Shown here piece by piece: positions 2,620-11,529 of a stretch of 64,000 bases of DNA. The notes beneath the pieces were generated by a model. That model was not told the DNA's origin, searched no databases, and saw only the letters and a program-made list of their open reading frames with translations. The translations under genes were made by a program, and so were the position numbers. Source of the DNA: Callorhinchus milii (Eukaryota); NCBI RefSeq assembly GCF_018977255.1, contig NW_024704742.1, positions 138,200,001 to 138,264,000 on the forward strand, read 5' to 3'. How positions within the stretch are numbered: the first letter of the stretch is position 1; the number at the start of each line of letters is the position of its first letter.

Positions 2620-3530
2620 CAGCTATATTACATTGGATAGGTAACTGTTTGACGAGAAAAACCCGGAGGGTGGTGGTACAATGTCCACTGGGAAAATGTT
2701 ACCAGTGGAGTTCCACAAGGGTCTGTTTTGGGACCACTTGTGTTTAACATTTTTATAAATGATCTGGAACTGGGAGTCACAAGCGCAGTGGCTAAGTTGG
2801 CAGATGACACCAAACTAACGCAGGTGGTAGATTGCGTAACTGAACAAGAGAGGTTACAGGAGGATTTGAACAAACATACTTGGGAATTGGGCAGAACGGT
2901 GGCGGATGAAATTCAATGTGGAGAAATGTAAAGTACTTCACATGAGGACAAAAAATCCTGGAAGGGACTGTTACTTGAAAGGGAGGAAAATAATATGTGG
3001 AGTCCTGTAGATCAATGGTTTGCAAGCGAGAGACCTGAGTTCAATTCCAGACAGAGGGCGAAACCTTGGGCAAGTTTCCTTACTCCACACAGAGCCTAAT
3101 AATAATCTCTCCAAAACCAAAAACAATAATAAATTGGTCACTTCAATCCACGACTGTTTGTGGGACATTGCTGTGTGCAATTGGCTGCCGCGTTTCGCCC
3201 ACAAATATACAGTCAATACCCTTTACAGTATATCCTGTGAAGCGCTTTGAGACATCGAGAAGACGTGAAATGCGCTATATCAAATGCAAGGATTATTATT
3301 GTTATGTATTGAAAATGAAGAGGACCTGGGGTTCCTGATTGATAATAAATTGAAGCTCTTCCAACAATGCTCTGTGGCAGTGAGTAAAGCAAACCCAGAT
3401 GTTGGGATATATCAAAAGATTAATAGCAGCTGAAATGGTGGAGTAATCCAGTGAATAAATTGATGAGAATGTATTTAGATATTGTGTGCAGTTCTGGTTC
3501 CCACAGTACAAAAAGGATATTGCGGAAATC
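2620..3530 (+). mobile_element. CR1 LINE RT fragment interrupted by a SINE (2998-3303)
   Basis: [40 protein letters not shown], later YCVQFWFP-like sequence. Confidence 0.88.
2998..3303 (+). mobile_element. Same SINE family, inserted in CR1
   Basis: Same head, body and tail. Confidence 0.88.
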
Positions 3531-3555
3531 NNNNNNNNNNNNNNNNNNNNNNNNN
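3531..3555. other. Assembly gap (25 N)
   Basis: N run. Confidence 1.
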
Positions 3556-3758
3556 TCTCTCTCTCTCTTTCCATCGTGTCTGTGCTGGGGCTCGCTCCCC
3601 CACTGGAGCTCTTTACTGCGAGTTGTAGTTGTTGTTGTGATGGGAGGACGGTTGAGGAGTAGGTGGTCGAGGAAGGAGAAGATCAATTGGGCTGAAAGAT
3701 CTTCTTCAAGTGCGAGCTTGTGAAGCCTCTAACCTTCCCCTCTGTCTCCGCGGCCCAG

Positions 3759-3910
3759 CAATACTTTGACGTGCCGATCCCGGTGGAGGTGCTGGTGGAG
3801 TACATGGACACGTTCCCCTCCCGGCAGCTGGAGATTGAGGAGGAGAGGAGGAGAGGTGTGACCTGCACCAAGCAGGACAGCCCCACAAACATCAACGCTC
3901 TGCTCTCCAG
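3759..3910 (+). CDS. CCDC80-like: CCDC80-like coding exon 4 (152 bp), on the opposite strand to exons 1-3
   Basis: ctaac branch + pyrimidine tract + cag|QYFDVPIPVEVLVEYMDTFPSRQLEIEEERRRGVTCTKQDSPTNINALLS(R)|gtacgt, phase 0 to 2. Matches recalled QYYEVPITMKSVFDLIDTFQSRIKDMEKQKKEGIVCKEDKKQSLENFLSR, the segment directly after exon 3. Confidence 0.9.
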
Positions 3911-3949
3911 GTACGTGTCACTCTCTCCTTCCCGACCCCGTGCACTACA

Positions 3950-4270
3950 CTGGAGTCCTGGCGTGTAGTGGATTGAGCGCTCGCCTCGCTAGCCAGACGA
4001 CCTGGGTTTGATTCCCGGGCAGGGCAAAACCTTTGGCAAGTTTCCCCGCCCGGCTCCCCACCACCATCGGTGGTCGGGCCTTCAGCCTCTCTGCCCCCAC
4101 CCTTTGGAACTCCATCCCACAGTCCCTTCACCTCGCTCCCTCCTTCGCCTCCTTCAAGGCCCGTCTCAAGACCCTCCTCTTGTACTGCGCTTTCTCACCC
4201 TACCCTCCCTGTCCCCCCCCCACCCCTCCTGATCTCAACCCCAATTTGGGTCCAATTCCCTGATTGTCCA
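3950..4270 (+). mobile_element. SINE head fused to an L2 3' fragment
   Basis: SINE head 3950-4046, then PTTIGGRAFSLSAPTLWNSIP...SFKARLKTLL. Confidence 0.8.
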
Positions 4271-5075
4271 ACTGAGTTCCCGTGTGCCAATGCAGACGGC
4301 CATTACCCCCAAACACTCCCCCAGCCCTCCCTTCTCCTATCAGGAAAAGAGAAGGCGGTTTCTCTCCCCCTCTCTCTCTCTCTCTCCCTCTTCCGGTTTC
4401 CTGGCCAACAATCCCCCAGATCGCTTGATTTGGGGGTTCTCAAACCCAGTCACTACACTCCTCTGTTATTATTTGTGCAGAGTTTTGCTACGAGAAATTG
4501 CTAAAAAAGATGCAAACTTCTCCCCAATTTTTCCCCAAATTCCACTCAGTCCGAGAGGCCTTTGATTCCTAAGTTTAAGGTGTAATTAATAATCTAAATA
4601 ATATCACGATGGCAACACGCTTTCCCCAGATCTGCACCAGTTTCCATCTTACGTTTGCTGATGAAAAAGGTATTGCAGGCTGAGGCGAGGCGGAATTCGT
4701 GGGTTCCTGGGTGGGAGGGGAGGGGTTCAGTGTCACAAGGCAGTGGGAGTCATGTAGCTACGAGGCAGTGAGATGTGAGATGTCCCACATGGCGCCCGCA
4801 GTGACTCTGTGCTTTAAGGTTACAGTGGAAACGACGGCTGTTAATAGTCTCCTCTCCCGACGAGGACGAGTGGGCCTTTCATCAGCAGCAGGGAATGGGG
4901 TTATAGAGGAACAAGGAGAGGGGTAGGAGAGAGAGAGCAGGGAATGGGATGAGAGGGGGGCTAGGGGGAGAGGGTGTGCGGGAAGAGAGAGGATGGTGGA
5001 GGGGAAGTGGGAGAGCGTTGGAAAGTGCTGAACGGGATATGGAGAGAATCTCTCGTGGCTCAGCTAACCTCTCAC

Positions 5076-5209
5076 CTTGATTTTCATATCATAGTCTGTT
5101 AGGACCATAAAGAACTCGTTAAACGTCATGCCGTAGTGTTCTCGGAGCTGTGCGGGGAGGGCGGGGCTCAGCGAGTCGGTAGACACAGACCTGAAGGGCG
5201 CCTCCTTCT
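5076..5209 (-). CDS. CCDC80-like: CCDC80-like coding exon 3 (134 bp)
   Basis: ctctgtag|EKEAPFRSVSTDSLSPALPAQLREHYGMTFNEFFMVLTDYDMKIK|gtgaga, phase 1 to 0, in frame with exon 2. Matches recalled LRKEYGMTYNDFFMVLTDVDLRVK. Not in the ORF track. Confidence 0.93.
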
Positions 5210-8650: not shown

Positions 8651-8807
8651 CGAGCTGGTAGGTCTCCACGCTGAGGTTGCTGTTGGAGATGGAGCCCAGG
8701 ATGGACACCACACTGACCTTGCGCAAGGCCAGCTCACACACGTGCTCCAGGTACAGGTCTCTCTGCCGGACATGGTGCTCTGTCTCCCTGCCCGGTGCCG
8801 TGATAAT
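8651..8807 (-). CDS. CCDC80-like: CCDC80-like coding exon 2 (157 bp)
   Basis: gtgcag|IITAPGRETEHHVRQRDLYLEHVCELALRKVSVVSILGSISNSNLSVETYQL|gtgagt, phase 0 to 1. Matches recalled CCDC80 LITAPKAENNMYVQQRDEYLESFCKMATRKISVITIFG. Confidence 0.93.
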
Positions 8808-9471: not shown

Positions 9472-11529
9472 TAGCAATCGCCTCTTGTTCTGAAAGTGTC
9501 TCAGAAACCCCTGCAGGTCCTGGCTGGGTGGGGGGCCGGGGGGGTCGCCTCTCCGCTTCTCTTTCTTCCTCCTGTCCTTTCGGTTCCTCTTTTGCCCCCG
9601 CTTGCGCTTCCTGCCTCCGCGTTTGCCCCCCCTGGTGGAGTTGCGGTCTCTCTGGCCGCCCTTGGCTTGGGGGGGCTTGGGGATGGGGTCAGGGGGGTCA
9701 CCCGGCCTCTCCCCCTCGCCCTCGCTCGCTGGCCCCGGCTGCCTGACGGGGTTACCCCCCAAGGTTGGGCTGGAGGAGAGGGCGGGTGGGGGCTTTGCGC
9801 TGGTGCTGACCCACTGAGCGGCCCCCAAACTGGGCTGAGGGTTCCTGGATGTCCCCAAACCCCTCTCCCGCTCCCCGGGGGCTGCTGAGCTGGTGTCGCC
9901 TTGTCTGGGGGTCCGATCGCTGGGGTCCCGGGCGGTGTTGGTCGGGGGCTCGGGGTGTAGCCGAGGAAGGGTGGGTGGGTGCGGGCGGCGATGGGAAGGT
10001 CTCTCCCTCTTGGAGGCCAACATCTGGCTCACCCTCTGCCTGACCCTCTCCAACAGTGAGGTCTCCCCTCGCCGCCCAGACCCTCTGCCCGCAACCGCAG
10101 CTCTCGCTCCGACCCCAACCCCAACCCCACTCCCAGCCCCAACCCCACTCCCAACCCCACTCCCAACCCCACTCCCGACCCTATTCCCAGCCCCAACCCC
10201 ACTCCCAGCCCCAACCCACTCCCAGCCCCAACCCCACTCCCAGCCCCAACCCCACTCCCAACCCCACTCCCAACCCCACTCCCGACCCTATTCCCAGCTC
10301 CAACCCCATGTGGAGCCCTAACCCCGTGATGGAGCCCATTCCCAGCCCTGGCAAACGCCTTGCGCCTCTGCGCACTGCCCGCCGCCCGGGTGGCGGCCCC
10401 CCCTGGCCCGCGGGCCCGCTGCCTGTGAGCCTTACACTGGACCTGGAAGCCCCGACGCCGGGTTTTCTCCATCCGCATGCGGGGCAGCGCGTCCACCGCC
10501 TCCAGGGCCGCCTGCGCCCGCACAGCGTAGGGGAAGCGCTCCCGGACGCCCAGGTCCTTCCCCAACACCAGGAGAGCGAACTCGCCGGCGTCCAGCGCAA
10601 AATAGCGCCTCATATTGGCCACCACGGGGGGGGGCACCGCCTGGCGGCCGGACACAAGCCCCCGGGGGGAGACCCTCACCACCCAGCCCCCCCCGGGGCT
10701 CCCCCAGGGCTCCCCCCGGGCCCCCCCCCAGGGCTCCCCCCGGGGCTCCCCCCGGGGCTCCCCCCGGGGACCCCCTCAGCCCCGAGCAGCAGTAGGAGGT
10801 GGAGGTCCCTCTCGGCCAATTGACAGCCCAACTCCCTGTTCCTCTCCAGGTCCAGTTGCTGCTCCATCAGACGGTAGGAGGGGTCCTCGGGACCGGGGGC
10901 GGACAGCACCAGCCACCGGTACCGCCCCGCGTAGGGGGCCAGTAACCCCAGCCCCGCCCCGGCCAGGACCCCCCCAGCCCCCCGCCCGCCCTGCCCCCCC
11001 GCCCCCCCCCAGCCCCCCGCCCCCCCCCAGGCCCCCGCCCGCCCTGCCCCCCCCGCCCCCCCCAGCCCCGCCCCGGCCAGGACCCCCCCAGGCCCCCGCC
11101 CGCCCTGCCCCCCCCGCCCCCCCCAGGCCCCGCCCGCCCTGCCCCCCCCGCCCCCCCCAGGCCCCGCCCGCCCTGCCCCCCCCGCCCCCCCAGCCCCCCG
11201 TCCCCCACCCAGAGATACCCCTCCCCGGCTCCCCCTCCCTCACCCCCTCCCTCACCCCCTCCCTCACCCCCTCCCCCTCCCTCACCCCCTCCCTCTCCCT
11301 CACCCCCTCCCCCTCCCTCACCCTCACCCCCTCCCTCACCCTCACCCCCTCCCTCACCCCCCTCACCCTCACCCCCTCCCTCACCCTCACCCCCCCCCTC
11401 ACCCCCTCCCCCTCCCCTCACCCTCACCCCCTCCCCCTCCCTCACCCTCACCCCCTCCCTCACCCCCTCCCTCTCGCCCCCCGTCTGCCCCAAAGCCAAC
11501 AGCAGCAGCAGGAGGGTCCCCCAAGTCAT
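9472..11529 (-). CDS. CCDC80-like: CCDC80-like secreted protein, large first coding exon (signal peptide, low-complexity repeats, DUF4174 domain 1, Lys/Arg-rich stretch, start of domain 2); several apparent frameshifts
   Basis: ATG at 11529 gives [18 protein letters not shown] (signal peptide). [27 protein letters not shown]...CQLAERDL and [51 protein letters not shown] match CCDC80 domain 1 as recalled (FAGKNRVWVISAP...ERYPYPVRLEAMYEVIDQGPIRRIEKIRQKGFVQKCKA). Ends FQNKRRLL then donor gtaagt at 9471. Frame breaks lie in G/C runs and repeats. Confidence 0.9.

Follow-up and report, generated by a model that had tools for sequence, protein, structure and literature searches.

Gap filling of the PBJelly type extends the flanks of assembly gaps, a gap being defined as 25 or more N, into the gaps themselves and can leave them "overfilled"; in the available text of the report that describes it, some overfilled gaps are linked to suspected inversions in the draft (PMC3504050). 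Mis-joins and inversions are also described for vertebrate assemblies, in an account whose accessible sections include a true gene-disrupting inversion, which affects the STARD5 gene of the greater horseshoe bat (PMC8081667). The gene described here, which belongs to the CCDC80 family, resembles STARD5 as presented in those sections in that the exons of one gene lie on opposite strands. Whereas splicing evidence is lost in STARD5, spliced contigs that run through exons 3, 4 and 5 of this gene are present in two studies, and one of the breakpoints lies on the edge of a gap. The likeness to a gap-filling misassembly comprises one end of the reversed block at a gap edge, the other at what would be a former contig end within a repeat, missing exons, and gaps of exactly 25 N. 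It differs in that the attachment of an extension in reverse is undescribed in the available portions of PMC3504050 and PMC8081667, and in that the gap filler behind this assembly is only conjectured. In the literature searched, including the accessible parts of PMC3504050, PMC8081667, PMC6733440 and PMC10166144, no description was found of a flank extension flipped in place. The comparisons below indicate that the flipped block is very probably the end of a contig, misassembled where it meets a gap.

The window, the whole stretch of 64,000 nucleotides that was analysed, corresponds to positions 138200001-138264000 of sequence C1 in the assembly of Callorhinchus milii (G000, 992 Mb searched). 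Positions are in window numbering unless C1 or a second sequence, C46, is named, and the local survey of repeats and gaps covered 1.004 Mb around the window. Comparison data were Logan contigs of the same species from seven of the 24 listed runs, here X1 to X7. The DNA-type runs X1-X4 represent four samples, all from one study, and the RNA-type runs are X5, X6 and X7, with X5 and X6 from two different studies; the RNA label of these three is a guess, as none is recorded as RNA, and is backed by GT..AG joints. No compared run is known to derive from the sequenced animal, and Logan contigs lose rare variants, so that they can demonstrate a normal allele but not the absence of an inverted one. 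A contig was accepted as bridging a junction with at least 31 letters on the short side.

CCDC80 is a protein of three P-DUDES domains, according to the available part of its description (PMC3285184), and the window gene, with DUF4174 matches in exons 1, 2, 3 and 5, shows collinear similarity to the CCDC80-like genes represented by two skate proteins, P0001 and P0002, of which P0002 bears the name "coiled-coil domain-containing protein 80-like". From the 3' end of exon 1 through exon 5, 114-116 of 185 residues are identical to the skate proteins (116 of 185 for the collinear match to P0002 residues 640-824), and exon 4, for which these two are the closest named relatives, is 68-70% identical to them. 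The first and second of three DUF4174 domains are present; of the third, the assembly holds the first 23 residues only, with 23 codons of exon 5 that match DUF4174 positions 5-27 and P0002 residues 801-824, and a weak PF13778 match at 4817-4915 (+) corresponds to the start of that exon. Set against the skate CCDC80-like proteins, the window gene lacks about 130 C-terminal residues in the assembly and has an exon 1 that is frame-shifted as written. A second CCDC80-family gene lies at C46:85366-106415 with all of its exons collinear on the minus strand. Over exons 2-4 the window gene is the closer of the two to the skate CCDC80-like proteins; the C46 gene is probably CCDC80 proper.

Table 1. Features of the CCDC80-like gene and its surroundings as assembled (window numbering)
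Feature	Position	Strand	Remarks
Exon 1, large first coding exon	9472..10942	-	about 71% GC; start unmapped; donor after 9472; first DUF4174 domain
Exon 2	8651..8807	-	157 nt; AG/GT ends
Exon 3	5076..5209	-	134 nt; AG/GT ends; RNA joint 5076-3759
Part of intron 3	4889..4960	-	ends in first half of tandem repeat unit; inner junction 4888/4889
Exon 4	3759..3910	+	152 nt; AG/GT ends; spliced in RNA-type contigs of runs X5 and X6
Exon 5, 5' part	4819..4888	+	70 nt; third DUF4174 domain starts; cut at 4888
Reversed block, putative contig end	3556..4888	+	1,333 bp; uncertainty at its ends 0-2 nt
(CT)n tract and second half of repeat unit	3556..3617	+	would lie 3' of 4889 in gene order, judged from unit order in other copies
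25-N assembly gap	3531..3555	.	probably hides rest of exon 5 and last exons

A first-pass annotation of this DNA, made from the sequence alone, had recognized a segment of about 1.3 kb that runs against the direction of the gene, and this reversal is indeed present in the assembly. Exon 4, bounded by AG and GT, lies on the plus strand and exons 1-3 on the minus strand; the path from exon 3 to exon 4 is ungapped, the exons share one frame in gene order, and the length of exon 4 is not a multiple of 3, all as had been stated. The statement that exons 1-3 are in frame holds from the 3' part of exon 1 onward. It fails for the rest of exon 1, in which the assembly uses three reading frames, that is, at least two frame changes, and in which short tandem repeats are present; these changes may be consensus errors or true lesions. 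The picture of a single flipped exon has to be enlarged, as the block also holds the 5' part of exon 5 (acceptor AG at 4817-4818); it thus carries one and a half exons, and it begins at the first base past the 25-N gap.

The breakpoints themselves have moved. They had been placed at 3617/3618 and 4904/4905, the left one only 62 bp from the 25-N gap, which had gone unmentioned. The compared runs leave the assembly at 4888, exon 5 is cut at 4888/4889, and intron-type repeat sequence begins at 4889. This inner junction is ungapped and shows 2 nt of microhomology; the "ct" microhomology reported for a join of 3617 to 4904 is unsupported, the block being 3556-4888. On its right the block ends in unique exon sequence, with no more than these 2 nt of microhomology, and the homologous inverted repeats at both breakpoints that recombination between repeats would call for are not present.

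The earlier placement had been drawn from a split repeat, and the motifs cited for it at 3601-3617, 4904-4887, 18672 and about 9240(-) exist as written. They belong to a tandem unit of about 65 nt whose halves alternate in an array 51 kb upstream. Within the 1.004 Mb surveyed, the join proposed in the first-pass annotation occurs in 50 copies and the gap-side join (4889 to 3556) in 40; since both are common in the region, a rebuilt repeat is no evidence for either one and cannot fix breakpoints. The unit that ends at 4889 (-) continues as the sequence at 3556 (+) within 1-2 nt, as it does in the upstream array. This continuation of the unit from 4889 into 3556 places the free end of the block at the edge of the gap.

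Contigs from other samples of the species read differently from the assembly at this point. In all four DNA-type runs (X1-X4) a contig departs from the assembly at 4888, with 95, 41, 85 and 158 letters after the departure, and the RNA-type contigs extend, by subtraction, 548 (X5), 215 (X6) and 358 (X7) nt past the same position. The loose end at 4888 begins with an identical 30 letters in four of four runs (X1, X3, X4 and X7); by eye these read in frame as VGTLSSRVCQ, opposite LTALTGQECN of skate P0002, and extend exon 5. Among the pieces listed, none crosses 4888/4889 in any of the seven runs (four DNA-type, three RNA-type), and the assembled junction is thus unsupported in every one of them. 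The gene-order join is seen directly in DNA in one of the two DNA-type runs whose compared stretch could reveal it. In this contig, X2 record 9, the segments 3666-4007 (342 nt) and 4890-4982 lie five letters apart and on opposite strands, which is the order of the gene. The X2 contig is without about 110 bp (3556-3665), so it gives the orientation but does not read the exact 4889-3556 seam; in X1 that seam falls inside the high-copy repeat and is unbridged. Intron 3 is polymorphic in this respect, X2 carrying the allele without these bases, and X1 and X5 have three small differences in common at 3661-3664.

The first-pass annotation had suggested that transcripts be checked for a junction of exon 3 to exon 4, and RNA-type contigs supply it. 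In both of the RNA-type runs compared over the two exons, exon 3 lies directly 5' of exon 4 in one contig: X5 record 17 (1,296 nt), which has the joint across strands, and X6 record 23 (864 nt), from the other study. Both runs also contain a joint of 3910 to 4819 with GT..AG, and in X7 the end of exon 4 precedes 4817 as a loose end and the common continuation follows 4888. Over exon 4 the contigs reach a depth of about 6-11, similar to the exon 3 side, this depth not being a measure of copy number. In other samples of the species both kinds of contig, DNA-type and spliced, have exon 4 after intron 3 and then an exon 5 that carries on.

The remainder of the gene was sought in several ways. Residues 825-954 of P0002 match the C46 paralogue only, with none on C1; a genome search with the PF13778 profile and the last exon of the paralogue gave no further match for the window locus; a 22-nt probe to the missing part of exon 5, with 1 mismatch allowed, had 0 matches in the assembly; and tblastn over 100 kb to the left and 40 kb to the right of the window recovered no missing 3' exons. 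The genome searches rank the best candidates only, so that they make the absence of the 3' exons likely, short of proof. As the remainder of exon 5 and the final exons, which together encode about 130 residues, were recovered nowhere in the genome, they probably lie inside the 25-N gap.

What has been assembled as a flipped block is most likely not a real biological feature, since other samples splice exons 3-5 in the normal order; of the two options offered in the first-pass annotation the artefact of assembly or processing is the best reading. In the mechanism proposed here, an assembly or gap-filling step would have reverse-complemented the terminal 1,333 bp of a contig, 3556-4888, in place. 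The earlier contig may have ended at 4889, within the high-copy tandem repeat beside the (CT)n tract; a long-read extension could then have reached 1.33 kb into the gap, ended in the middle of exon 5 and been attached the wrong way round, and the leftover gap would have been written as 25 N. PBJelly presumably pads leftover gaps to 25 N. The block end at 3556 is the first base after such a gap, and in the surrounding 1.004 Mb there are 10 gaps, of which nine are exactly 25 N.

The alternative that survives best is that the sequenced animal has a real 1.33-kb inversion (3556-4888), probably heterozygous and produced by end-joining, that cuts exon 5 and yields a null allele, the assembler having broken at one breakpoint and kept the other. 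The ungapped 4888/4889 junction with its short microhomology is what real end-joining also gives, heterozygous rearrangements can cause contig breaks, and intron 3 is polymorphic, as the X2 allele attests. Nevertheless, the block has an end that falls on a gap edge to within 2 nt, none of the seven runs has a piece over the assembled junction among those listed, and the rest of the gene is absent from the assembly and does not appear beyond 3556. A true inversion would put the rest of exon 5 just past 3556, where the assembly has a gap; of the two junctions that such an event would leave, only 4888/4889 is present, the other end of the block being the gap. An inverted junction in the population, or a loss of splicing, is likewise not what the runs display, as the junction is unseen in the seven and spliced forms are present, although rare alleles are missable in such data. 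The gene-disrupting allele put forward as the other option in the first-pass annotation is contradicted in every compared run that bears on the question and could hold for the sequenced animal only, as an allele private to it. A real inversion in that animal is on these grounds very unlikely, and there is only a slim chance that the reference has fixed a rare natural loss-of-function allele of this kind, absent from the other samples examined.

It is highly improbable that the block is instead an inverted duplicate or chimeric fold-back, with the true exons 4-5 in normal orientation inside the gap. According to the available text of PMC3504050, about 1% of PacBio reads contain opposite-strand parts that overlap, owing to missed hairpin adapters, and the 25 N do not fix the size of the gap. 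Against this, exon 4 is single-copy in the assembly: the DNA search for a second copy, which the first-pass annotation had named as a possible sign of an inverted duplicate, returned none, the sole other match being one of 65 nt at 81% to the flank. The block also continues the intron at 4889 without the duplicated overlap that a fold-back should leave, and contig depth over exon 4, which is no guide to copy number, is like that of the exon 3 side. The inversion within the contig from 3618 to 4904, marked by the split repeat, has next to no chance of being correct: its join does restore the repeat unit in one of its permutations, but both permutations are common, re-inversion leaves exon 5 hitting stop codons five codons after 4888, the runs diverge at 4888 and not at 4904, and X1 record 1 (3588-4024) spans 3617/3618, its shorter side having 30 letters, one under the 31-letter rule.

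With the 25-N gaps, the frame changes in exon 1 and an inverted duplicate close by, the neighbourhood looks error-prone. The duplicate is an inverted duplication of about 29 kb (24890-54123 versus 67793-97427; 96.8-98.9% identical) that begins 0.9 kb away from the second gap, also of 25 N. Between its arms, gap openings equal or exceed substitutions in three of four segments, and the alignment suggests that it may be a false duplication. A flip at that second gap (24016, with an inner point at about 26506) was considered and rejected, the inverted duplicate being collinear across the candidate. A split-repeat test at gap edges, for which 16 of 20 edges were testable, was non-discriminating, since 92 of the 229 testable random controls (of 300) were also positive; with that same control rate, the test at edge 3556 returned 4885-4889 among several candidates. 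To the left of the gap beside the block, a LINE-like fragment at 2620-3530 (+), which we take to be of CR1 type, is cut by the gap and contains a SINE-like repeat inserted at about 3000-3305; its orientation is consistent by eye, and no flip is therefore seen on the left side of the gap. Elsewhere on C1 a SPRY1-like open reading frame (C1:848464-847460, minus strand) has a 25-N gap (C1:842924-842948) 4.5 kb from its stop codon. This locus is a possible candidate for a second gap-side flip, and fixing the ends of its block would take orthologous UTR sequence.

The biological weight of the reversed block is small, exons 3-5 occurring in normal order in spliced and DNA-type contigs. In practical terms, the assembly both breaks and truncates the gene, so that annotation or gene-loss studies that rely on it could score this CCDC80-like paralogue as lost or pseudogenised in the lineage. 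Should further 25-N gaps in the assembly prove to have reversed contig ends next to them, nearby "inversions" and "gene losses" would be suspect as well.
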